A stretch of 12,583 nt of DNA, from IMG/VR virus record IMGVR_UViG_2562617113_000016, one strand, 5' to 3'. Numbering within the stretch: the first letter of the stretch is position 1; each line of letters opens with the position of its first letter. Source of the stretch: a virus. Its lineage: Duplodnaviria > Heunggongvirae > Uroviricota > Caudoviricetes. The notes beneath the pieces are model-generated. The model was given only the letters and a program-made list of their open reading frames with translations. It searched no databases and was not told the DNA's origin. This document shows positions 1-12,583 of the stretch, one piece after another. The translations under genes were made by a program, and so were the position numbers.

Positions 1-1371
1 TCAGGCTGTCGCAGGGTCGTCACATTTTGGCAGCCAGTCGCCGTAGCTTTCCTCTTTCAGCGTCAGGTTGGTCTGTATCCCCTGTTTGGTATGGCGCTTC
101 TCGTAATTCAGTCCGTATTCCTTCAGCATCACCGGCAGCCCCAGCCCGAACATTTTCAGACTGAGTACATTCCGGTAGCCGTTTGCCTCCATGTAGGCCA
201 GATAGGCGTGATAGAGGTATTTACGGTAATTACGCGGGATGATACTGGCGTTCCCCATATACATGCCGCTGGTCTGCGGCAGGGTTTCCAGATAGCCGAT
301 AAAATCAAACGTCGGGTCGGCATCCCGTTTGATGTTCAGTGCCTCGTCTGAGTTCTGCTGGGACTGAAGCAGTGACCGGGCGAGCATCGGGTCGCTGAAC
401 TTCTGCATCAGGTGACGCACGATGACCGCCAGCTCGCGGGTGATTTTGTCCTTAAGCTGCGGGTCGCGCTCCTGCGGGGCTATCTGTTCCGGGAAGTGAA
501 TAATCACCCGCCGGCGTGACACGCCGCCGCTGCGGTCGGTGAAGCGCATCGGGTTATTGTTCACGGCCAGAATCACCGCCGGGATATGCGTGGAGTACGC
601 ATCCCGGTATTTCGGGTCCACGGACACCGCATCGCCGCCGGTGATGGCCTTGAGTCCGGCACCGTCGCCGCTCCATTTTTCCTGGTCCGGCAGGCGTATC
701 AGTGAGAAGCCAGTTAACGCGGCACGTTCACGCGGGGATTCCAGCGTCTCAATGGTGGCCGACGTGGCGTTATCCTCCCCGGCCAGCAGGGTGGCTATTT
801 CGGCCATGATACTTTTGCCGCTGCCGCCGGGACCGGTCACCTCCAGAAAGAGCTGCCAGTCGTAGCGGTTTGCCAGCACCATAAACAGTGCGGCCAGAAT
901 CACGTCGCGTTTTTCCGCACGGCCACCGGCGGCACGGTCAAGCCAGCGCCAGAACGCGGGGGCGTGGGTCTCCAGCGTTTCACCGTCCACCGGCGGGGTG
1001 AAATCCACATCGCACAGGGTGCGCATCCAGTGTAACGGACTGTGCGGGTGGAACGTGCCGTTCTGCGTGTCGAGCACGCCGTTACGAAAGCCAATCAGGC
1101 GGCGGGAGGGGGCTTCCTGCTGTGGAATAATCAGCTTCAGGGTGTCCACCACGGAGGCCACCTTCCCGGAGGAGAACGGCGCGCGCAGACGCTGAAACAG
1201 CCCGGCCACATCCCGGGCAAAGTCCTGTGGCGGCAGCACCTTCCAGACACCATTTTCATAGCGGGACAGAAGCTGGCCGTTGGCATCGACCGCGAGCGCC
1301 TCACCGTAATGCTCATAGATACGCATGGCCTTTTCGCTGGTACTCATGGCGGAAAACTCTGCTTCGCTCAT
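1..1371 (-). CDS. alpha: P4-type alpha protein, C-terminal helicase/origin-binding portion (ORF downstream of the frameshift)
   Basis: 456-aa ORF; translation matches the C-terminal two thirds of P4 alpha as I recall it, including a P-loop-like GPGGSGKS. Stop codon at 1-3. Open frame continues upstream of the ATG to about 1536. Confidence 0.85.
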   Translation of the reverse strand: MSEAEFSAMSTSEKAMRIYEHYGEALAVDANGQLLSRYENGVWKVLPPQDFARDVAGLFQRLRAPFSSGKVASVVDTLKLIIPQQEAPSRRLIGFRNGVLDTQNGTFHPHSPLHWMRTLCDVDFTPPVDGETLETHAPAFWRWLDRAAGGRAEKRDVILAALFMVLANRYDWQLFLEVTGPGGSGKSIMAEIATLLAGEDNATSATIETLESPRERAALTGFSLIRLPDQEKWSGDGAGLKAITGGDAVSVDPKYRDAYSTHIPAVILAVNNNPMRFTDRSGGVSRRRVIIHFPEQIAPQERDPQLKDKITRELAVIVRHLMQKFSDPMLARSLLQSQQNSDEALNIKRDADPTFDFIGYLETLPQTSGMYMGNASIIPRNYRKYLYHAYLAYMEANGYRNVLSLKMFGLGLPVMLKEYGLNYEKRHTKQGIQTNLTLKEESYGDWLPKCDDPATA

Positions 1372-2333
1372 GGTGTCGAACGGGCTTTCAGCCGGTGGCC
1401 GGATGGCATCGTAAATGGCCTTACGGGTGGCCTCCCCGCCGTACTGCGTGAAGGCATCATTCCAGTCACCGAAGACCGGCGGCAGGGCAACAACGCCCTC
1501 ACACGCATCTGCGGCTGCGGCAGCTTTTTCTGGCCGTCACCGCTGAGGTCACGGTCTGCGGCAAGGACAATCTGACAGGCCGGATGCTTCTGCCGGGCAA
1601 GGCTGGCCAGAGAAAGGAGGTTCACGGAAGAAAGCGCCACCATCACCGTTTCACCGGTCAGGTGATGCACGGTAAGTGCGGTCGCGTATCCCTCCGCTAT
1701 CCACAGACGTTTTCCGGCCTGATTCTGTCCTTCAAGGGTGTGACAGGTGCCCCTGACCTGTCCGCCTTTCAGGGTGCGCTTACGGCCGTCAGCACTGATT
1801 AACTGAAGGTTAACCAGTTCGCCGCTGTCGTCATACAGTGGCACCACAAGGTCACCGGCACGCCAGCTCACGCCACCGGCTCTGTGTGTGCCGGTCAGCA
1901 TCCGGCATTCCCGGCCGGGAAAGCCCTTGCGGGTCAGGTAGGCGTTACCGGTTCCGGGACGGGTTTTCGCCATCAGGGTTTGTGCCAGTGCGGCGGCGTT
2001 CTTCCGGGCAGCGTCTGTTTCAGCAACGGCGGCAGCCGTCACTGCCGGGTCAGCCGGTGGCAGGCTGCCGGTCACGGCAGCCACCTTTGCGGCCGCGTCG
2101 GACGGGGAAACACCAAACACCTTTTCAACCAGTTTCAGGCCGTCACCGGCACCACACTGATTGCAGTACCAGGTGCCGCGCCCCTCCCTGTCATCAAAAC
2201 GGAAGCGGTCACTCCCGCCACAGACCGGACAGGGCTGATGACGGTTTTTCAGCACCTGAATCCCCAGCGCCGGGAGAATACGCGGCCAGTGGCCGAGTGC
2301 ATGGCTGACGGTGGCGGTTACGTTCATTTTCAT
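1368..2333 (-). CDS. alpha: P4-type alpha protein, N-terminal primase portion (zinc-binding CxxC...CxxC plus primase core); last ~51 codons are out of frame
   Basis: 321-aa ORF starting MKMNVTATVSHALGHW with CPVCGG...CNQCG zinc motif. Good RBS (AGGAG) about 9 nt upstream of the ATG at 2331-2333. The tail after GDGQKK looks like frameshifted read-through ending at TGA overlapping the ATG of the downstream ORF. Confidence 0.85.
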   Translation of the reverse strand: MKMNVTATVSHALGHWPRILPALGIQVLKNRHQPCPVCGGSDRFRFDDREGRGTWYCNQCGAGDGLKLVEKVFGVSPSDAAAKVAAVTGSLPPADPAVTAAAVAETDAARKNAAALAQTLMAKTRPGTGNAYLTRKGFPGRECRMLTGTHRAGGVSWRAGDLVVPLYDDSGELVNLQLISADGRKRTLKGGQVRGTCHTLEGQNQAGKRLWIAEGYATALTVHHLTGETVMVALSSVNLLSLASLARQKHPACQIVLAADRDLSGDGQKKLPQPQMRVRALLPCRRSSVTGMMPSRSTAGRPPVRPFTMPSGHRLKARSTP

Positions 2334-2347
2334 GGTGTTGTTCTCCT

Positions 2348-2668
2348 TCAGTGCAGTACCGGCGCTTTTATGTGACGGGCACAGAGTTCATCCATCACAA
2401 CCAGCCCGAGAAAGGACAGCGACGGCGCGGCCTTCAGGGGGCCGGATTCCATTAAATCTTCCAGCAGGGCACAGGCTATCTGACGCCCTTTTTCCTCACC
2501 GTGCTGGCGCAGATAAAAGCCTTCCAGCTCAGCGGCGATGGCCGCCTCCAGTGACTCAAGGGTGAGATGCGGGTAGCGGTGCTGACGTTCGCACACGGTC
2601 AGCCAGGCACAGGCGACAGCGCGACGGTAAAGGGCAGCGCGTAAGACGGGCGGTAAGGGTGTTTTCAT
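2348..2668 (-). CDS. hypothetical protein, P4 left-operon orf106-like
   Basis: 106-aa ORF directly upstream of alpha; GGAGG RBS 7 nt upstream of the ATG at 2666-2668; same strand and tight spacing as the alpha operon. Confidence 0.6.
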
Positions 2669-2803
2669 TTGCTTTCCTCCCTGTGACAGATGACTGCATT
2701 CCGTGCCGGTTGCATTAACTGATAAGGCATATCTGCGTCTCCTGAAGACGTGCGTATCCCTGCGCGAATACGCACATTTAATTTTTCGGGTGTCGTTTTT
2801 TAA

Positions 2804-3259
2804 TTACAGATAATTGCGGTAACTGTTATCCGGGGTGGTTTCCGGGTCAGGCTCCGTGCGGGGAATTTCCCGCCATTCCCGCGCTACCGGTGCTGCCCGG
2901 CTGACCGGAACAGTGTCCTGCGGGTAAATATCCAGATATTTCTCCCGCCATTTCTGTAATTCCGGGTCTCCGGCCATTTCTTTCAGTACCGCATGCCGGT
3001 TTACGGGGCTGCGTTTAAACAGGTCAGGACGGTCACAGGTAAATTCCCGCAGAAAACGCCCCAGCGGGATGTCTGTGGTGCGCCCGTCGGCGAGGATACG
3101 CACAAGGATACTGAATTTACGGCGGTACGGATTCCAGACAATGTCCGGGCAGCGGTACGGCATTTCCCACGGAATACCGTCTTCCAGAATGCCGACCACG
3201 GCCACATCGGGAAAACCGGCAGAACGGTAAATCTCACCGGGCTGGGGAAAATCAAACAT
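2804..3259 (-). CDS. hypothetical protein, P4 left-operon orf151-like
   Basis: 151-aa ORF; start overlaps the stop of the upstream ORF by 8 nt (translational coupling). Confidence 0.6.
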   Translation of the reverse strand: MFDFPQPGEIYRSAGFPDVAVVGILEDGIPWEMPYRCPDIVWNPYRRKFSILVRILADGRTTDIPLGRFLREFTCDRPDLFKRSPVNRHAVLKEMAGDPELQKWREKYLDIYPQDTVPVSRAAPVAREWREIPRTEPDPETTPDNSYRNYL

Positions 3260-3539
3260 GCGTCCTGTCTCCCCGGTCTTTCTGCTGGGCGAGAAAATCG
3301 CGGCACAGGCCTTTGGCTTTCAGCTCATTCAGCACAAAATCAATATCTTCATTCAGGTAGCTGAAAATATGCGGAATGTAGAGCTGATGCAGGCCGGAGA
3401 GTTCACGGTGAATCAAATCACCCCCAACAAACTGGGATACGGCGCTGGCGCGGTTGAGCTTATGGTAAGCCTCAATGCTGAGGTGTTCACGGGCGTCATG
3501 ACGCGCTGAGACGGTCTGAGGGGCTTTTTTATTACGCAT
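3252..3539 (-). CDS. small 95-aa protein, candidate P4 epsilon-like (helper derepression) protein
   Basis: Internal ATG at 3537-3539 of the longer track ORF 3252..3779, preceded by a strong SD (GGAGGTG, about 5 nt spacing). The upstream 80 codons of the track ORF look non-protein-like. Size and position match epsilon in P4; identity by recall only. Confidence 0.45.
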
Positions 3540-3729
3540 GAGACACCTCCACCACCGGCAGACGGGCAGCAAGGGAGAGCACATAGTCACGGACAAGGGA
3601 ACGGCGGGCGCTGCGTTCATCACCGGCGACGGTGCGAAGCATACAGATACGGGGATGACGGTCTGCGCGACGGACAGCCGCAAACACAAAGACAAATTCA
3701 GGGTGTGAGGGGGTAAGGGTCGTAGCCAT
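3532..3729 (-). CDS. small 65-aa protein, first gene after the immunity leader (kil-like position)
   Basis: ATG at 3727-3729 with strong SD GGAGGT and 6-nt spacer; lies in the frame of track ORF 3532..4167, whose N-terminal region I interpret as leader. Alternative starts at 3906 or 3936 have poor RBS. Confidence 0.4.
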
Positions 3730-3739
3730 AAGGCAACCT

Positions 3740-4046
3740 CCGATAACAGCGTAAATGACGCTATCGCCGGAGTTCTCACGCTCGATGGCGATAGCCCAGA
3801 CGGGGGTGAGAATACCGGCGTTATCGGAAACCGGCCAGCCCGGAGGCTGCCCCGCCTGAGCTACCATTGACTCAGTGGCATAACATGCGATTGCGAACAG
3901 GATCATACCTGCACGGCAAACCACACGCCACACCATAATCTGGTGCTCTGTGGCGTTGATTGCGACACAAAAAAAGACGCATGGCGCGTCATATGTCGCC
4001 GATAACATACTCGGGTTCTCACGCCCGGCTGCCGATTTTGCGGCAG
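3740..4046 (-). ncRNA. candidate P4-type immunity leader (cI-RNA-like region with seqA/seqB/seqC-like complementary elements)
   Basis: Direct repeats GCGTGAGAAC (4015-4024 and 3772-3781, minus strand) and GTTATCGG (3999-4006 and 3740-3747), with a segment between them (3804-3827) complementary to both. The downstream copy overlaps the SD of the 65-aa ORF. Hairpin plus T7 run at 3969-3990. Confidence 0.35.
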
Positions 4047-4083
4047 CGGAAAAACTATATCCGCAAATGCCGGAAAAAGGCAA
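4047..4083 (-). promoter_or_regulatory. candidate sigma70 promoter (PLE-like) for the left operon
   Basis: Minus strand TTGCCT (4078-4083), 18-bp spacer, TATAGT (4054-4059), immediately downstream of the vis-like gene. Confidence 0.4.
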
Positions 4084-4118
4084 GCCAGAAAAAGGGAGTT
4101 TTTGCAGAGCGGGCATCA

Positions 4119-4385
4119 TCATGCGTCGTACCCCCGTTTGCGTCCGGCAATGCGTCCGGCCATCCATGCGGTGACTTCAGAGTGCAGCCAGGCCACATTT
4201 TTACCGCCAAGACTCACCTGCGGCGGAAATTCCCCCTTACGGATGAGTTCATAGATGGTCGAGCGTGACAGGCCGCACAGGTGCATCACTTCCGGCAGAC
4301 GTAAAAAACGCTCCTGCGTGATGTCCGGCAGCGGCATCAGTGGCGTCACAGGGGCGGGAGACGGGGAAGAAAAAACAGCTTGCAT
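4119..4385 (-). CDS. AlpA/Vis-family HTH DNA-binding protein (P4 orf88/vis-like regulator or excisionase)
   Basis: 88-aa ORF with the AlpA-family signature RLPEV...[17 protein letters not shown]...W..SEV; GAGGT RBS about 8 nt upstream of the ATG. Confidence 0.75.
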
Positions 4386-4439
4386 CGGGCTACCTCGTTA
4401 ATGTCCATACAGCACCGGATAAGTCCGTCCGGCTTCGGG

Positions 4440-4505
4440 TAGCGCTTTATTTTGTGAATATTTTTGGCAGACGCAACAGGGGGGATTTGTTCCGGCAGCC
4501 TTACA
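4440..4505 (-). promoter_or_regulatory. candidate Delta/Ogr-activated late promoter (PLL-like) driving the vis-like gene
   Basis: TGT-N12-ACA dyad at 4488-4505 (TGTtccggcagccttACA); a start about 55 bp downstream on the minus strand would fall near 4441. Confidence 0.45.
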
Positions 4506-4530
4506 ATGACTGTGTGTTTTTTGTTCATTC

Positions 4531-4560
4531 CCACTTAAAGTCATTTAAAGCCACTTAAAG
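4531..4560. repeat. three tandem 10-bp repeats (C/T)CA(C/T)TTAAAG
   Basis: CCACTTAAAG TCATTTAAAG CCACTTAAAG, helically phased, between the PLL-like dyad and the iteron cluster. Confidence 0.6.
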
Positions 4561-4664
4561 CAATTCGTAATTTTTATAGTGAAATACAAATCGTTTCTTC
4601 TTATTCATTCACAGCGAATTAATAAAAACAAACAGTAGTAAACAGCACAAAAAGTCCATGAGCG

Positions 4665-4768
4665 GGTGAACAGTGGTGAACAGACGGTGAACAGTCATTA
4701 CTGCGATTGTTCACCCTTTAACTTACTGTATTACTTATCTTTTTTTTATGGTGAACAGAGGTGAACAG
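4665..4768. repeat. iteron cluster of P4 type I (TGTTCACC / GGTGAACA) alpha-binding repeats; candidate ori
   Basis: GGTGAACAG at 4665-4673, 4675-4683, 4686-4694, 4750-4758 and 4760-4768, plus an inverted copy TGTTCACC at 4708-4715; 10-11 bp spacing; flanked by A-rich tracts. Confidence 0.6.
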
Positions 4769-4849
4769 TAAAATATAAAAAAAAACAAACAGTAAGCCGG
4801 TTTTTCCTGCGACCTTTTCCTGGCTTGCCGGTCTGAGGATGAGTCTCCT

Positions 4850-4915
4850 GTGTCAGGACTGGCACATCTGCAATGCGTCGTGTTGTTGTCCGGTGTACGT
4901 CACAATTTTCTTAAT
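4850..4915 (+). promoter_or_regulatory. candidate Delta/Ogr-activated late promoter (Psid-like)
   Basis: TGT-N12-ACA dyad at 4850-4867 (TGTgtcaggactggcACA), about 55 bp upstream of a plausible start near 4913; sid ATG at 4939. Confidence 0.5.
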
Positions 4916-4938
4916 CTGAAGTGACGAGGAGCCGGAAA

Positions 4939-5673
4939 ATGTCTGACAACACCATCCCTGAATATCTGCAACCCGCACTGGCACAACTGGAAAAGGCCAG
5001 AGCCGCCCATCTTGAGAACGCCCGACTGATGGATGAGACCGTCAAGGCCATTGAACGGGCAGAGCAGGAAAAAAATGCGCTGGCGCAGGCCGACGGAAAT
5101 GACGCTGATGACTGGCGCACAGCCTTTCGTGCAGCCGGTGGTGTCCTGAGCGACGAGCTGAAACAGCGCCACATTGAGCGCGTGGCACGCCGGGAGCTGG
5201 TACAGGAATATGACAATCTGGCCGTGGTGCTGAATTTTGAACGTGAACGCCTGAAAGGGGCGTGTGACAGCACGGCCACCGCCTACCGGAAGGCACATCA
5301 TCACCTGCTGAGTCTGTATGCAGAGCATGAGCTGGAACACGCCCTGAATGAAACCTGTGAGGCGCTTGTCCGGGCAATGCATCTGAGCATTCTGGTACAG
5401 GAAAATCCGCTCGCCAACACCACCGGCCATCAGGGCTACGTCGCACCGGAAAAGGCTGTCATGCAGCAGGTGAAATCATCGCTGGAACAGAAAATAAAAC
5501 AGATGCAAATCAGCCTCACCGGTGAGCCGGTTCTCCGGCTGACCGGACTGTCAGCGGCAACACTCCCGCACATGGATTATGAGGTGGCAGGCACACCGGC
5601 ACAGCGCAAGGTGTGGCAGGACAAAATAGACCAGCAGGGAGCAGAGCTTAAGGCCAGAGGACTGCTGTCATGA
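4939..5673 (+). CDS. sid: Sid, capsid size determination (external scaffold) protein
   Basis: 244 aa from ATG 4939 (MSDNTIPEYLQ...) with GAGGAG RBS. The track ORF starts at an upstream GTG (4921). Size and gene order sid-delta-psu match P4. Confidence 0.85.
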   Translation: MSDNTIPEYLQPALAQLEKARAAHLENARLMDETVKAIERAEQEKNALAQADGNDADDWRTAFRAAGGVLSDELKQRHIERVARRELVQEYDNLAVVLNFERERLKGACDSTATAYRKAHHHLLSLYAEHELEHALNETCEALVRAMHLSILVQENPLANTTGHQGYVAPEKAVMQQVKSSLEQKIKQMQISLTGEPVLRLTGLSAATLPHMDYEVAGTPAQRKVWQDKIDQQGAELKARGLLS

Positions 5674-6170
5674 TTTACTGCCCGTCGTGTGGACATGTTG
5701 CTCACACCCGTCGCGCACATTTCATGGACGATGGCACCAAGATAATGATTGCACAGTGCCGGAATATTTATTGCTCTGCGACATTTGAAGCGAGTGAAAG
5801 CTTTTTCTCTGACAGTAAAGATTCAGGAATGGAATACATTTCAGGCAAACAGAGATACCGCGATTCACTGACGTCAGCCTCCGGCAGTATGAAACGCCCG
5901 AAAAGAATGCTTGTTACCGGATATTGTTGTCGGAGATGTAAAGGCCTTGCACTGTCAAGAACATCGCGGCGTCTGTCTCAGGAAGTCACCGAGCGTTTTT
6001 ATGTGTGCACGGATCCGGGCTGTGGTCTGGTGTTTAAAACGCTTCAGACCATCAACCGTTTCATTGTCCGCCCGGTCACGCCGGACGAACTGGCAGAAAG
6101 CCTGCATGAAAAACAGGAACTGCCGCCAGTACGCTTAAAAACACAATCATATTCGCTGCGTCTGGAATGA
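5670..6170 (+). CDS. delta: Delta, Ogr-family zinc-finger late transcription activator (tandem Ogr-like domains)
   Basis: 166 aa; two Cys4 clusters (CPSCG...C..IYC and CCRRC...C.DPGC); ATGA overlap with the sid stop. Confidence 0.85.
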   Translation: MIYCPSCGHVAHTRRAHFMDDGTKIMIAQCRNIYCSATFEASESFFSDSKDSGMEYISGKQRYRDSLTSASGSMKRPKRMLVTGYCCRRCKGLALSRTSRRLSQEVTERFYVCTDPGCGLVFKTLQTINRFIVRPVTPDELAESLHEKQELPPVRLKTQSYSLRLE

Positions 6171-6243
6171 GGGCTGCCGGTTAACACCGGCCGTCGCCGC
6201 ACACCGTATTTTTATTCTTCAGCATGATGAGAAAGAGATAACG

Positions 6244-6816
6244 ATGGAAAGCACAGCCTTACAGCAGGCCTTTGACACCTGTCAGAATAACAAAGCAGCA
6301 TGGCTGCAACGCAAAAATGAGCTGGCAGCGGCCGAACAGGAATATCTGCGGCTTCTGTCAGGAGAAGGCAGAAACGTCAGTCGCCTGGACGAATTACGCA
6401 ATATTATCGAAGTCAGAAAATGGCAGGTGAATCAGGCCGCTGGTCGTTATATTCGTTCGCATGAAGTCGTTCAGCACATCAGCATCCGCGACCGGCTGAA
6501 TGATTTTATGCAGCAGCACGGCACAGCACTGGCGGCGGCACTGGCACCGGAGCTGATGGGCTACAGTGAGCTGACGGCCATTGCCCGAAACTGTGCCATA
6601 CAGCGTGCCACAGATGCCCTGCGTGAAGCCCTTCTGTCCTGGCTTGCGAAGGGTGAAAAAATTAATTATTCCGTACAGGATAGCGACATTTTAACGGCCA
6701 TCGGATTCAGGCCTGACGCGGCTTCGGTGGATGACAGCCGTGAAAAATTCACCCCTGCGCAGAACATGATTTTTTCGCGTAAAAGTGCGCAACTGGCATC
6801 ACGTCAGTCTGTGTAA
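6244..6816 (+). CDS. psu: Psu, polarity suppression / capsid decoration protein
   Basis: 190-aa ORF following delta; size and position as in P4. Confidence 0.85.
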   Translation: MESTALQQAFDTCQNNKAAWLQRKNELAAAEQEYLRLLSGEGRNVSRLDELRNIIEVRKWQVNQAAGRYIRSHEVVQHISIRDRLNDFMQQHGTALAAALAPELMGYSELTAIARNCAIQRATDALREALLSWLAKGEKINYSVQDSDILTAIGFRPDAASVDDSREKFTPAQNMIFSRKSAQLASRQSV

Positions 6817-6851
6817 AATTCCCCGAAAATCCGCCCGTTTTTACTGAAAAA

Positions 6852-6880
6852 AGCCATGCATCGATAAGGTGCATGGCTTT
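6852..6880 (+). terminator. candidate intrinsic terminator after psu
   Basis: 9-bp stem AGCCATGCA / TGCATGGCT with 9-nt loop, followed by TTTGCATGCGTTT. Confidence 0.45.
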
Positions 6881-6980
6881 GCATGCGTTTCCCTGCCTCA
6901 TTTTCTGCAAACCGCGCCATTCCCGGCGCGGTCTGAGCGTGTCAGTGCAACTGCATTAAAACCGCCCCGCAAAGCGGGCG

Positions 6981-6999
6981 GGCGAGGCGGGGAAAGCAC
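6981..6999. other. cos: P2/P4 cos site (19-nt cohesive-end sequence)
   Basis: GGCGAGGCGGGGAAAGCAC matches the P2/P4 cohesive-end sequence as I recall it; sits in a GC-rich dyad context just downstream of psu, as in P4. Confidence 0.75.
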
Positions 7000-7170
7000 T
7001 GCGCGCTTACTTAGATGCGTGAATTTATTTATATCACTGAAGTATATCCCTAAGCTCATTTCTCAAAGGGCCTATGGTTGCACAAGGTTGTACCATGGCA
7101 TTCAAAACTTTTTAAACCAAGAATGACAATTTCATTATTAGGCCGGAATAGTTACTAATTTTAGTATAGG

Positions 7171-7199
7171 TTGCGATTGTTTAACGCATTTTTTATTAT
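7171..7199 (+). promoter_or_regulatory. candidate sigma70 promoter for the first cargo gene
   Basis: TTGCGA (7171-7176), 17-bp spacer, TATTAT (7194-7199) in AT-rich DNA upstream of the 434-aa ORF; several alternative hexamers exist nearby. Confidence 0.3.
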
Positions 7200-7241
7200 G
7201 ATGCAGATTTTATTATTACTAATGGGGTGCAAAAAACACGT

Positions 7242-8531
7242 ATGAAAAAAAATGTTGGTAACCGCAATAAAAATTCTGATGTGCTTATTCTTAAAGGTAT
7301 GTTGAACAATTTAAAAGATGGTTTAAATAATTTTGAATTATTGCTTAAATTGCAGTTTAAAATATTGGTGTGCGTGATGAGATGTGAGCGGAAAATTAAG
7401 TTTCTTAAAAAGAATAATGCTCATTTAAGGTCGGTGTTAAAAAAATCAAGACTTCCAAAAGAAAAATCTCTGGCAGTAAAAGAAAAAATTAAATACAATT
7501 CTGAAGTAATTACTGCTGAAAAATTCAAGATATATACGTATAAAATGTTTGGCGATGCTGTTGCATTTTTATACATCGATAAATATACAATTAAACAGTT
7601 ATACTACAATGTACATAATTACAATGTTAAAGAAACGTCGGGGGATTTGAGCGGTAAGTCTGGATTGCGAGAGGAATGGGAATGCGTAAAACTTGCATGT
7701 GATAATAAAGTTCCAGCTCTGTTGCATGATATTACAATGAGTATAAGGCATGGAGATGTATCACTTTTAGGTAAAGATGAGCCATTTATTATTGAGATGA
7801 AATCAAGCTCAAATACAAATAAGAGAGTTGAGCGGCAAAAATCTAACCTTGAAAAATTAGGAAGTTTCATAGCAAAAGACGAAGCTGAAAATTTTCGAGG
7901 GATTCCATTGTTAATCAGGAAAAATTTGTTAACTGAAGAGGAATCATATTCTCAGGTTTTAAATGAGTGTCTTAATGATTGTCGCAGCAAAGGAATGGCT
8001 TTGGTTGAAGCTGAAAAAGGATTTTATATCTGCGCAGTTAGAGAAGGGAATATGGCTTCTATGCTAGAAAATATAGATTTTGATGAAAAAAAAGAAGTTT
8101 TTCCTGTATTTCTCAATCAATATAAAAATAATGGGGAATGGCTACCATTAACACCATTTACACTATTAATTAACGATCCTTACGATCTCCATGATTTTAT
8201 CGAAGGGGAATTAACAATAGCTTGTTTTTTAATGCTCGATGAATACAAAAAAATTGCTATAGAACTAGGCTATGAATTAGTTTTTGTTTCAAATGATGAA
8301 TATAGTATCTTGTTAAAAAGAATTGGTGAAGATATTATATTTGGTGTTTCCTGGCAAATGTTGTTAAGAGTTCCATTAGAGATGATGTCCATGTCATGGT
8401 TGATAAAAGAAAGTATTAATATATATAGTAACTCCCTAGAAAATAGCACCCATAATGATGAATTAAATCAGGGGCAGGGAAATACTAAAAATTCATTATT
8501 CGAAAAATACAAGAATTTATTTTCTTACTAA
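7242..8531 (+). CDS. cargo protein A, unknown function, putative PD-(D/E)xK-fold nuclease
   Basis: 1.3-kb ORF in AT-rich DNA, where random ORFs of this length are improbable. First ATG at 7242; track start is GTG at 7227. Motif ...PALLHD(168)...FIIE(190)MK(192) fits the hhhD...hhhExK pattern. No strong RBS seen. Confidence 0.8.
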   Translation: MKKNVGNRNKNSDVLILKGMLNNLKDGLNNFELLLKLQFKILVCVMRCERKIKFLKKNNAHLRSVLKKSRLPKEKSLAVKEKIKYNSEVITAEKFKIYTYKMFGDAVAFLYIDKYTIKQLYYNVHNYNVKETSGDLSGKSGLREEWECVKLACDNKVPALLHDITMSIRHGDVSLLGKDEPFIIEMKSSSNTNKRVERQKSNLEKLGSFIAKDEAENFRGIPLLIRKNLLTEEESYSQVLNECLNDCRSKGMALVEAEKGFYICAVREGNMASMLENIDFDEKKEVFPVFLNQYKNNGEWLPLTPFTLLINDPYDLHDFIEGELTIACFLMLDEYKKIAIELGYELVFVSNDEYSILLKRIGEDIIFGVSWQMLLRVPLEMMSMSWLIKESINIYSNSLENSTHNDELNQGQGNTKNSLFEKYKNLFSY

Positions 8532-8563
8532 TTAAGCATTGTAATTATATTTGATTTTTTCTA

Positions 8564-8597
8564 CAGGCTTGGACGGAATCATATAGCTCCAAGCCTG
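8564..8597. terminator. hairpin between the convergent cargo genes (candidate terminator, mainly for gene A)
   Basis: Perfect 10-bp stem CAGGCTTGGA / TCCAAGCCTG with 14-nt loop; followed by TGTTGTGTC on the plus strand; a T-run precedes it. Confidence 0.5.
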
Positions 8598-8632
8598 TTG
8601 TGTCGGTATCAAAAAGAAAGTGATATTATTGT

Positions 8633-10006
8633 TTATCTAATATATTTTGTTACTTCCATATTATCTTCATCGTCAAAAGAGTACTCAACCATCATACGAC
8701 TATTTTTACCTGACTTAATATCTTGAAGCCAAGCTGAGGCAACCCTAGGGTCTAAATGCTGTTTTCTACTCAGCTCATTATTTTTTAGCCTATCAAGCCT
8801 TATTGCTCTTTGAAGAGTTTTATCGATGTAGTCTTCCAAATCAATGGACAACCTCCTTTTTGGATATAAATATTGGTATTCATCACACAATAGTACTCCT
8901 GGTAATTTAATTTCGCGTAGGTCGAAAGAATACCAACTATAGTTTTTAGACTCATTAGCTAATTCCGAAACTAGATGAGCCCCATTTTGTTGTAAGAGAG
9001 ATATTTTGTGATCGATGCTAATGTCAGATATTTCTCTTAAAGACTCAAAATGCATGTTTTCGTAGATAGTATTTAATAAAATACTCTCCATGTAAGAGTA
9101 AAAATCAGTACCATCGATGATAATATTAGTTTCATTGTAGACTGCAAGAGACATAAGATATATGAAGAAAACTGCGGGAGTACTATTACCTCTGTTTATA
9201 TCAAGTCTAAGGGAGTTGACATAATCAGGCGGAGAGTTTGAGAAAATTTCTCTTATTAACCAGTCTGGAATAGTGGTTCTTGTTAGAATGTCAGCGTTCA
9301 AACTTGAACGACATAAAAAAATACACATCTTTAATTTTAATTTTATTGAAAATGATGGGAATAAATGATCGATGAAAGATAAAATACATGTATACTCTGC
9401 TAAGTCTGTTTGTTGCAACTTTTCTTTTATTTCATTTTCAAGCATTTTTAATTTAAAAAAATCATTCCTTTTTTCTAATATTTCCCAATGAAATAATTGC
9501 TCCTGAGCGTACGCATGCCCCTCTAAAATAGCTAGCATGCTTAAAGGAATGTTTAGGATTTCTTGATAATTATTAACATACCCAAAGAAATGGACTCTGA
9601 TATACACACCCATATCGTCATCATATTGTAATGATGCTTTAATATTTTTATAATTTAATTTATTAGTGCTGTTGTTTTTGAAGTGATAATGTAAAGTAAT
9701 TTCAGTATCATCAACTAATAAATTATCAAAAGCCTCCTTTGTTTCATATTTAAAATAGTTATATAGCCGACATGAATAATTTAACCCCCAGTGAGTTGTA
9801 GAACAATCAAGTAAATGGATTGTTTCATGGAGATATGTTTTATAAAATTCAATTTCGCTATCATCAAAATCATATATGCTTTTACTGTCTATGATATTTT
9901 GTGCTTGCGGTAAACTTATATTTAATTCATCGTTTGAAATCTCAATTAAATGTGATGAAAAATCATAAGAACCCAATGTTTTGCTGTTAAATATACATCC
10001 GCTCAT
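8633..10006 (-). CDS. cargo protein B, unknown function, putative zincin-like metallopeptidase (HEXXH)
   Basis: 457-aa ORF in AT-rich DNA. HETIH at residues 60-64 (DNA 9815-9829) in the context YKTYLHETIHLLD. Start ATG overlaps the integrase stop (ATGA) with AGGGGA RBS 6 nt upstream. Confidence 0.8.
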   Translation of the reverse strand: MSGCIFNSKTLGSYDFSSHLIEISNDELNISLPQAQNIIDSKSIYDFDDSEIEFYKTYLHETIHLLDCSTTHWGLNYSCRLYNYFKYETKEAFDNLLVDDTEITLHYHFKNNSTNKLNYKNIKASLQYDDDMGVYIRVHFFGYVNNYQEILNIPLSMLAILEGHAYAQEQLFHWEILEKRNDFFKLKMLENEIKEKLQQTDLAEYTCILSFIDHLFPSFSIKLKLKMCIFLCRSSLNADILTRTTIPDWLIREIFSNSPPDYVNSLRLDINRGNSTPAVFFIYLMSLAVYNETNIIIDGTDFYSYMESILLNTIYENMHFESLREISDISIDHKISLLQQNGAHLVSELANESKNYSWYSFDLREIKLPGVLLCDEYQYLYPKRRLSIDLEDYIDKTLQRAIRLDRLKNNELSRKQHLDPRVASAWLQDIKSGKNSRMMVEYSFDDEDNMEVTKYIR

Positions 10007-10278
10007 AGCAAATCCCCTAAAAGATAATCAGAGTACCATTGAATCATCGTTTTCCTTTGAGAAAAATATTGTGCGTGATTATAGGTTCCTCGGATATTGT
10101 TCTTATCAACATGTGCTAATTGCATTTCAATCCAGGTACTATCAAATCCCTGTTCATGTAGGATTGTTGACATTGTATGTCTAAAACCGTGACCTGTAGC
10201 ACGTCCTTTGTAACCAAGTAACTCAATCACTTGTGAAACACTTTCTTTTGAAATTGGTTTGCTACGTAACCGGCTCAT
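10003..10278 (-). pseudogene. int: tyrosine recombinase (P4-type integrase), C-terminal remnant only
   Basis: 91-aa ORF with catalytic-domain signature GHGFRHT...LAHVDKNNIRGTYNHA (R-H-R-Y region). The upstream in-frame codon is a stop and no integrase-like sequence is found further upstream; IS DNA begins there. Confidence 0.8.
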
Positions 10279-10318
10279 TTAAACCGTCTGGTCTGTTTCC
10301 TCCGGCTCTACAAAAATA

Positions 10319-10996
10319 ATGTCCATCATTTTTAATGGACACTATCGTATGAAACACCGGACCTGGATCACTGAAGCTTTACGTCTTCACTTTGAAGAAC
10401 ATTTACCCCGGGTTGTGGCCGGGCGTCGCCTGGGTGTACCAAAATCAACAGTTTGTAGTATGTTCGTGCGCTTTCGGAGAGCTGGCCTTTCGTGGCCTTT
10501 GCCCGCAGGCATGTCGGAGCAGGAACTTGATGCCTGCCTTTACGGACAATTTTCCACGGTACCAGTCGTACGTCCTGAAAGCACCGTTATATCCGAAGCC
10601 CCCGTGGTAAAAAAACGTCCCCGGCGGCCCAACTTCCCTTATGAGTTTAAAATCGCCTTAGTGGAGCAGTCACTGCAGCCCGGAGCCTGTGTGGCGCAGA
10701 TCGCCCGGGAAAACGGAATCAACGATAACCTGCTCTTCAACTGGCGCCATCAATACCGGAAAGGTGGCCTGCTGCCTTCCGGAAAAAATATGCCGGCACT
10801 GCTTCCCGTGACGTTAACGCCGGAGCCGGATAATAAAATCCCGGCCCCCGCACAGGAACCAGAGCAGATAAATACACCGTCCGACAGTCTGTGTTGTGAG
10901 CTGGTTCTGCCGGCCGGAACTCTCAGGCTTAAAGGTAAACTGACGCCGGCGTTATTACAGACACTTATCCGCGAAATAAAAGGGAGCAGCCACTGA
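10319..10996 (+). CDS. tnpA: IS66-family TnpA (orf1) accessory protein with HTH; N-terminal extent uncertain
   Basis: 225-aa ORF. C-terminal part (KRPRRPNFPYEFKIALVEQSLQPGACVAQIARENGINDNLLFNWRHQYRKG) is a transposase HTH typical of IS66 orf1. N-terminal about 90 aa carries a second HTH (LRLHFEEHLPRVVAGRRLGVPKSTV...AGLSWPLP) that resembles IS21-family IstA N-termini from memory. Confidence 0.65.
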   Translation: MSIIFNGHYRMKHRTWITEALRLHFEEHLPRVVAGRRLGVPKSTVCSMFVRFRRAGLSWPLPAGMSEQELDACLYGQFSTVPVVRPESTVISEAPVVKKRPRRPNFPYEFKIALVEQSLQPGACVAQIARENGINDNLLFNWRHQYRKGGLLPSGKNMPALLPVTLTPEPDNKIPAPAQEPEQINTPSDSLCCELVLPAGTLRLKGKLTPALLQTLIREIKGSSH

Positions 10997-11343
10997 TGAT
11001 ATCTCTCCCTGCAGGTTCGCGTATCTGGCTGGTTGCAGGTATCACCGATATGCGAAATGGCTTTAACGGCCTGGCATCAAAAGTTCAGAACGTCCTGAAG
11101 GATGACCCGTTCTCCGGACACCTGTTCATCTTCCGCGGACGCCGGGGTGACCAGATAAAAGTGTTGTGGGCTGACAGTGACGGACTGTGCCTCTTCACCA
11201 AACGCCTGGAGCGGGGCCGCTTCGTCTGGCCAGTCACCCGTGACGGCAAGGTGCACCTTACTCCGGCTCAGTTATCCATGCTTCTTGAAGGTATCAACTG
11301 GAAGCACCCGAAACGAACGGAACGCGCTGGAATCCGCATATAA
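10996..11343 (+). CDS. tnpB: IS66-family TnpB (orf2)
   Basis: 115-aa ORF with ATGA overlap to tnpA; sequence (..GLCLFTKRLERGRFVWP..) matches IS66 Orf2-like proteins as recalled. Confidence 0.85.
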   Translation: MISLPAGSRIWLVAGITDMRNGFNGLASKVQNVLKDDPFSGHLFIFRGRRGDQIKVLWADSDGLCLFTKRLERGRFVWPVTRDGKVHLTPAQLSMLLEGINWKHPKRTERAGIRI

Positions 11344-11362
11344 CCCGTTGTAAAGTGAGGAT

Positions 11363-12583
11363 ATGGACACCTCACTTGCTCATGAGAACGCCCGCCTGCG
11401 GGCACTGTTGCAGACGCAACAGGACACCATCCGCCAGATGGCTGAATACAACCGCCTGCTCTCACAGCGGGTGGCGGCTTATGCTTCCGAAATCAACCGG
11501 CTGAAGGCGCTGGTTGCGAAACTGCAACGTATGCAGTTCGGTAAAAGCTCAGAAAAACTTCGTGCAAAAACCGAACGGCAGATACAGGAAGCACAGGAGC
11601 GAATCAGCGCACTTCAGGAAGAAATGGCGGAAACGCTGGGTGAGCAATATGACCCGGTACTGCCATCCGCCCTGCGCCAGTCTTCAGCCCGTAAACCGTT
11701 ACCGGCCTCACTTCCCCGTGAAACCCGGGTTATCCGGCCGGAAGAGGAATGCTGTCCTGCCTGTGGTGGTGAACTCAGTTCTCTGGGATGTGATGTGTCA
11801 GAGCAACTGGAGCTTATCAGCAGCGCCTTTAAGGTTATCGAAACACAACGTCCGAAACAGGCCTGTTGCCGGTGCGACCATATCGTGCAGGCACCAGTAC
11901 CTTCAAAACCCATTGCACGCAGTTATGCCGGAGCGGGGCTTCTGGCCCATGTTGTCACCGGGAAATATGCAGACCATCTGCCGTTATACCGCCAGTCAGA
12001 AATATACCGTCGTCAGGGAGTGGAGCTGAGCCGTGCCACACTGGGGCGCTGGACAGGTGCTGTTGCTGAACTGCTGGAGCCGCTGTATGACGTCCTGCGC
12101 CAGTATGTGCTGATGCCCGGTAAAGTCCATGCTGATGATATCCCCGTCCCGGTCCAGGAGCCGGGCAGCGGTAAAACCCGGACAGCCCGGCTGTGGGTCT
12201 ACGTCCGTGATGACCGTAACGCCGGTTCACAGATGCCCCCGGCGGTCTGGTTCGCGTACAGTCCGGACCGGAAAGGTATCCATCCACAAAATCACCTGGC
12301 CGGTTACAGCGGTGTGCTTCAGGCCGATGCTTACGGTGGTTACCGGGCGTTATACGAATCCGGCAGAATAACGGAAGCCGCGTGTATGGCTCATGCCCGG
12401 AGAAAAATCCACGATGTGCATGCAAGAGCGCCCACCTACATCACCACGGAAGCCCTGCAGCGTATCGGTGAACTGTATGCCATCGAGGCAGAGGTCCGGG
12501 GCTGTTCAGCAGAACAGCGTCTGGCGGCAAGAAAAGCCAGAGCCGCGCCACTGATGCAGTCACTGTATGACTGGATACAGCAA
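11363..12583 (+). CDS. tnpC: IS66-family transposase TnpC (orf3), 5' partial, runs off the window
   Basis: Translated by hand from ATG 11363: [29 protein letters not shown]..., with leucine-zipper-like N-terminus and CPACGG...CCRCDH zinc motif typical of IS66 transposases. Open to the window end, so absent from the ORF track. Confidence 0.85.

Follow-up and report, generated by a model that had tools for sequence, protein, structure and literature searches.

Prophage e14 encodes Lit, a zinc protease of the HEXXH type that excludes T4 through cleavage of EF-Tu in the presence of the T4 Gol peptide (PMC3014915). Neprilysin coordinates its zinc through His583, His587 and Glu646, the last of these on a later helix; Glu584 is the base, and Asp590 and Asp650 form Asp-His-Zn triads (PMC2259306, PMC7822871). 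The interval between psu and int in P4 satellites is a published defence hotspot and antiviral reservoir (PMC9122126), and six of eight randomly chosen unknown loci from this hotspot were found to protect against phages (bioRxiv 10.64898/2026.02.27.708500). Here we analyse a gene from such an interval, referred to as B herein, in a 12,583-nucleotide stretch of DNA (IMG/VR record IMGVR_UViG_2562617113_000016; the window) that represents a P4-like phage satellite. We propose that B encodes a zinc metallohydrolase that is cytoplasmic and acts on its own, and that is most likely a peptidase of the gluzincin type. Given that the gene is carried in defence hotspots of mobile elements as cargo sufficient in itself, we consider a single-gene anti-phage (abortive-infection) effector to be its likeliest role. 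We give this explanation, in its general form, a probability of about 0.5.

Of 5426 complete E. coli genomes, 10 carry B at 100% identity; the protein is annotated as hypothetical (RefSeq E. coli accession WP_001406847.1). The first-pass annotation of this DNA had placed an HEXXH zincin-like motif at residues 60–64 of the protein, encoded at 9815-9829, and these coordinates are exact: HETIH, which lies within YKTYLHETIHLLD and is encoded on the minus strand, is the sole HExxH in B. The gene and the sites discussed below are as follows.

8633-10006, minus strand: gene B, 457 amino acids, from its open reading frame and translation.
9806-9829, minus strand: HExxHxxD signature (H60 E61 T I H64 L L D67), with H60 and H64 as proposed zinc ligands, E61 as proposed base and D67 as the proposed His-orienting residue.
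9797-9862, minus strand: predicted motif helix, residues 49-70, the candidate active-site helix (AlphaFold2; predicted local distance difference test score, pLDDT, 96-98 here).
9500-9523, minus strand: E162-G-H-A165-Y-A-Q-E169, residues 162-169, the candidate glutamate helix and source of the third metal ligand.
9392-9397, minus strand: E204-Y205 pair, nearly invariant by conservation.
10003-10018, minus strand: junction between B and int, where the B ATG (10004-10006) overlaps the int stop codon (10003-10005) as ATGA.

Composition alone predicts 0.03 HExxH motifs in B, and 2.7% of 100,000 shuffled sequences carried one, so that the motif taken by itself is weak evidence; it is conservation that lifts it above chance. 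While a word-indexed search returned only five relatives, all hypothetical, and a second profile word-index search together with a scan of genome contigs yielded few loci, an exhaustive profile search recovered 184 representatives of 50%-identity clusters, nearly all of ~430–480 amino acids. Conservation was counted in an alignment of 121 full-length homologues with a mean pairwise identity of 21%. Persistence of the motif in homologues had been set beforehand as one test of the zincin-like proposal, and we found H60 and H64, as well as D67, in 120 of the 121 sequences and E61 in 119. Equally constant are E162 (121/121), E169 (120/121) and Y205 (120/121), followed by A165 (116/121) and E204 (110/121). 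The nine most conserved columns include H60, E61, H64, D67, E162 and E169, and the 14 of 457 columns that are at least 90% conserved are H60, E61, H64, D67, T71, W73, G74, P154, E162, A165, E169, E204, Y205 and L236. The family signature can be written HE-x-T-H-[FYLW]-[LIV]-D-x-[TS]-[TS]-T-x-W-G ... P-x-S-M-L-[SA]-x-L-E-[AG]-x-A-x-x-x-E. B belongs to a family of ~450 amino acids that is undescribed in every library searched, and its named members come from Gammaproteobacteria and Betaproteobacteria and are all annotated as hypothetical.

An AlphaFold2 model built on the 121-sequence alignment (mec58989babec) reached a mean pLDDT of 93.2 and a predicted template modelling score of 0.92; an earlier run with six sequences was too poor for use (pLDDT 58). 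In this model, an N-terminal hairpin (residues 12-23) precedes the motif helix, and HExxH sits within that helix as the first-pass annotation had expected of an active site. Two more helices and a three-stranded meander (119-154) lie between the motif helix and a second long helix (157-179), at the start of which E162 and E169 are placed; residues 183-457 are almost all helical. H60, H64, D67 and T71 (i, i+4, i+7, i+11) share one helix face, as do E162, A165 and E169 (i, i+3, i+7), with the small A165 where two helices would pack. The segment EGHAYAQE had been put forward as a source of downstream ligands, and this survives in part: its two glutamates are invariant or nearly so and occupy the second long helix, which makes E162 or E169 the natural candidate for the third ligand. 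H164 within the same segment was rejected as third ligand, since the position varies between H, S and N across the family.

This arrangement is reminiscent of gluzincins of the M13 type. The spacing of H60, E61, H64 and D67 equals that of H583, E584, H587 and D590 in neprilysin, HExxHxxD lies on one long helix and ExxAxxxE on another, and E162-x-x-A165 resembles the E-x-x-A of the GENIAD motif. B differs from M13 enzymes in the position of the second acid, at +7 rather than +4, and in its spacer of 98 residues rather than 59. Like SprT/Wss1 and the M48 peptidases HtpX and LoiP, B has hydrophobic residues before HE and after H; in contrast to this similarity of local motif context, its alignment to those proteins is limited to the columns around HExxH. 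With Lit, on which our functional model is based, B would have in common its place as one gene on a mobile element that is defective, zinc protease activity of the HEXXH type and the latency of an enzyme that causes abortive infection (PMC3014915), whereas B has no Peptidase_U49 match, the sizes of the two proteins differ and their folds probably do too. The ImmA/IrrE (M78) and CapP proteins are likewise HExxH peptidases found on mobile elements and in immune operons, but B has no match to their family, lacks a partner repressor and is much larger.

Several observations weigh against the assignment. Searches of Pfam, NCBIfam and PADLOC with B gave nothing above noise and PHROGs only a noise-level match, and the same three libraries searched with 110 family members gave nothing shared. 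None of three profiles, built on six sequences, on 121 sequences and on the trimmed catalytic region (46-182), matched a sequence in the PDB. Comparison of the family profile with E. coli LoiP, HtpX (M48) and SprT using hhalign recovered the motif only, over 14-17 columns at a probability of 0.5-1.1%. Gluzincins do not typically have 98 residues, including the main beta-sheet, between HExxH and the glutamates, as B does, and convergence of the five active-site side chains on one site is inferred. HExxH is also used by metalloenzymes that are not peptidases. At the level of function, gene B is absent from the P4 loci that have been tested, and its expression in the window is uncertain because the element has decayed, with alpha frameshifted and int cut by IS66.

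Further comparisons agree with the absence of a recognisable relative. Foldseek of the B model against PDB and BFVD returned nothing at E<=0.001, so that a zincin fold was not recognised against solved structures. The listed comparisons with known proteins also include several nucleotidyltransferases and assorted helical proteins. For E. coli SprT (YggI), the hhalign match covered 14 columns at a probability of 0.95%, and there was no Pfam match. The Peptidase_U49 (Lit) profile matched neither B nor 110 relatives at E<=1, and the Peptidase_M78/DUF955 profile matched neither. PADLOC-DB 2.0 gave zero matches for B or for its neighbour, gene A, and only scattered single-member noise for the 110 B relatives. 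As no curated model recognises B or its relatives, membership in ImmA/IrrE, SprT/Wss1, M48, Lit/U49 or other named families is unsupported. The zincin-like reading is partly supported: it holds as a conserved active-site signature and is unsupported as membership of a family or fold.

Based on the conserved residues and the model, we suggest the following mechanism. H60 and H64 on helix 49-70, together with E162 or E169 on helix 157-179, would bind the metal, E61 would activate water, and D67 would orient H64 in the manner of Asp590 in neprilysin; Y205 may stabilise the transition state. The N-terminal ~215 residues would form the catalytic module, and the helical C-terminal half (~216-457) would give specificity for a target or trigger. 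B would be latent until infection, which, by analogy with Lit, it would abort through cleavage of an essential protein of the host or the phage. What the data establish directly is the motif, its conservation and helical setting, and the mobility of B as a stand-alone unit in hotspot contexts; metal binding, peptidase activity, the role in defence and the trigger are inferred. Taken separately, these parts differ in strength. B is probably a metal-dependent hydrolase, the odds that it is a peptidase specifically are close to even, and an anti-phage role seems about equally likely to be right or wrong.

The case for a defence function comes from where the family is found. B occurs in P4 satellites of E. 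coli, Salmonella and Klebsiella. In a chromosomal integron of Vibrio parahaemolyticus, its homologue is a single gene between attC-type repeats in a long cassette array that looks defence-rich. In Idiomarina, a homologue adjoins tnsABC-tniQ, and in Pseudoalteromonas one lies downstream of tnsD. In Photobacterium ganghwense (L011, 6001-12456), the homologue closes the cargo of a type I-F3 CRISPR-associated transposon (CAST), immediately upstream of tniQ-cas8/5-cas7-cas6, and in another Tn7-like cargo region (L014) a homologue stands beside Vsr, a C5 DNA methylase (Dcm) and a GHKL ATPase. Others are near a Prim-Pol/D5 element in Massilia, next to a resolvase, and on a P. aeruginosa megaplasmid; one that follows polA has an uninformative context. 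Our functional proposal draws on this recurrent placement in defence-rich cargo sites together with the six protective loci among eight tested from the P4 hotspot. The suggestion of abortive infection made in the first-pass annotation is plausible, its basis being this genomic context.

As a side observation, the V. parahaemolyticus array (L002/L003) also carries cassettes for a 316-amino-acid protein kinase, a MazG-like protein, several GNAT acetyltransferases, ParE/Phd pairs, a 499-amino-acid reverse transcriptase (RVT_1) and a DUF8370/DUF8371 protein.

With the recently described P4 systems Crouga, Bandua, Aernus, Toga, Reve and Hailong, B shares the psu-int niche and a lack of recognition by DefenseFinder and PADLOC (bioRxiv 10.64898/2026.02.27.708500). 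These six differ from it in that they include no protein resembling B or A and have Pfam domains such as NERD, kinase, KAP and SMC-like. Two 20-mers of gene B, one of them in both orientations, were absent from the synthesised P4 constructs, and a preprint on integron defence contains no peptidase cassette. The RefSeq accessions turn up nowhere in the literature searched, and tblastn of A and B against GenBank phages gave no match.

Among the alternatives, the one that survives best is that B is a metal-dependent enzyme that uses HExxH for chemistry other than peptide cleavage, such as nucleotide or small-molecule hydrolysis or an Fe/2-oxoglutarate (Fe/2OG)-type oxygenase reaction, and is nonetheless mobile cargo. 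We consider this unlikely. The conserved set is the classical peptidase constellation of two histidines, a glutamate after the first, an aspartate at +3 of the second and an acidic ExxA helix; 68 of the 121 members fit a zinc-protease motif pattern; and none of the NCBIfam models for HExxH hydroxylases or hydrolases matches the family above noise.

Somewhat less probable still is that B is cargo that does not serve defence. It might, for instance, be an anti-defence factor, a factor in competition between elements, a toxin or an effector directed at the host. Non-defence genes are indeed also found in hotspots, integron cassettes and Tn7 cargo, and B is not in the PADLOC candidate sets. What favours a defence role over this explanation is that B recurs in four kinds of defence-rich cargo sites, that unknown P4 hotspot loci have a high success rate, and that B, as read from its sequence, has no signal peptide or secretion context.

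The first-pass annotation had also proposed that B acts with its neighbour A, a nuclease-like protein, in one two-gene abortive-infection module. A and the region between the genes have the following features.

7227-8531, plus strand: gene A, 434 amino acids, an open reading frame convergent with B.
8563-8573 and 8588-8598: perfect 11-bp inverted repeat, ACAGGCTTGGA / TCCAAGCCTGT, with a 14-nt loop, in the 101-bp gap between A and B.
L020 6001-7290, L018 6001-7290 and L025 6479-7779: homologues of A in other loci.

A matches phrog_14906, a PHROGs family of unknown function, and its PD-(D/E)xK-like residues D177...E190-x-K192 are invariant in 11 homologues, which is in keeping with a nuclease partner. 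All 10 E. coli genomes moreover have A next to B, as does a diverged satellite in which the two have drifted equally (74% identity for A, 73% for B). Against a module, the genes are convergent with a hairpin between them, and each family is found without the other. Every distant B homologue examined lacks A, among them those in integron cassettes and in Tn7-like or CAST cargo, the Vibrio copy being a single-gene cassette; conversely, a P2-like prophage has a homologue of A with 50% identity, without B, in the interval from gpA to the portal gene, a P2 hotspot. Either gene can also be broken while the other is intact beside it: Klebsiella has an intact B next to a frameshifted A, and Pluralibacter an intact A next to a 64-amino-acid remnant of B. 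The module is already largely refuted by these findings, and we regard it as improbable. Both this explanation and that of an ImmA-like regulator were rejected because no conserved partner gene accompanies B across the nine contexts sampled. The latter, in which B would be an ImmA/IrrE/CapP-type protease whose cleavage of a repressor activates the element or an immune operon, has in its favour that such HExxH peptidases are common on mobile elements and that B appears translationally coupled to int, and is very improbable given the lack of Peptidase_M78/DUF955 matches in 110 members, the absence of a conserved adjacent HTH repressor in any context, the size of B (~450 amino acids with a large extra domain versus ~150-250 for ImmA) and its occurrence as a lone integron cassette.

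The most fitting interpretation of A and B is that of separate units, each of one gene, that share a hotspot, A probably being an independent nuclease-type unit. As its 50%-identical homologue occupies the P2-like gpA-portal site, the A family is present in both P2 and P4 hotspots, and gene families common to the two are reported to be rare (a 2026 preprint). The inverted repeat between A and B is possibly a transcript-end hairpin that keeps the two units apart, or a stabiliser; no T-run follows it on either strand. B itself is preceded by a Shine-Dalgarno sequence, AGGGGA, at 10013-10018. This good Shine-Dalgarno sequence and the ATGA overlap place B in the transcription unit of int and not in that of A, which implies that in an intact element B would be co-transcribed and translationally coupled with int. 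A promoter and terminator scan of the AT-rich cargo gave a result no better than shuffles. The independence of A and B matters for how such hotspot loci are cloned and tested.

The remainder of the window is consistent with a satellite in decay. It encodes Psu (Pfam E 2e-88), an Ogr/Delta protein, an alpha primase-helicase and the P4 immunity RNAs, and its P4-like nature is confirmed by Rfam matches that mark the P4 immunity (CI RNA) region. Positions 1-10266 are 99.92% identical to a satellite at the tRNA-Sec of E. coli 07-4299. The AT-rich psu-int insert that holds the two convergent genes has a guanine-plus-cytosine fraction of 0.305 versus 0.557 for the backbone. The other features are listed here.

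3784-3871, 3970-4047 and 4008-4060, minus strand: C4 antisense RNA, isrK and c4 a1b1 target, respectively, each above the Rfam gathering score.
1-1371 and 1368-2333, minus strand: two open reading frames of the split alpha primase-helicase, frameshifted by a 1-nt deletion at ~1525 relative to the intact 07-4299 satellite.
10003-10278: int remnant, the last 91 codons (C-terminal), truncated by an IS66-family insertion.
~10267-12583: IS66-family element inside int, whose transposase region runs off the window.
10319-10996: IS66 orfA with HTH_Tnp_1.
10996-11343: TnpB_IS66.

The IS66 insertion takes away the promoter and 5' part of int upstream of B; int is intact in locus L001. A frameshifted alpha and a broken int make this satellite copy look immobile and in decay, and A and B are still 100% intact.

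B is a credible candidate, on sequence grounds, for a new single-gene anti-phage protease; until it can be tied to a phenotype, it counts among the many uncharacterised genes of such hotspots. As the family is undescribed in every library searched, it represents a worthwhile and cheap experimental target, and if the proposal is correct B would be easy to dissect, since it needs no partner. In its boldest form, which we offer tentatively and hold to be rather doubtful, the proposal is that B founds a new metallopeptidase family, with a zincin-type site on a fold that has no recognisable solved relative, and a new single-gene system of abortive infection that passes among P4 satellites, chromosomal integrons and Tn7/CRISPR-associated transposons, in which the helical domain, on sensing a phage component, would set off cleavage of an essential protein of the host or the phage. 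Should B prove to be an active peptidase that protects against phage, it would add a family to the known proteases and a member to the single-gene defence systems, and would be among very few metalloprotease-based abortive-infection effectors since Lit. It would also show cleanly how one immune gene can move among integrons, CAST/Tn7 cargo and P4 satellites.
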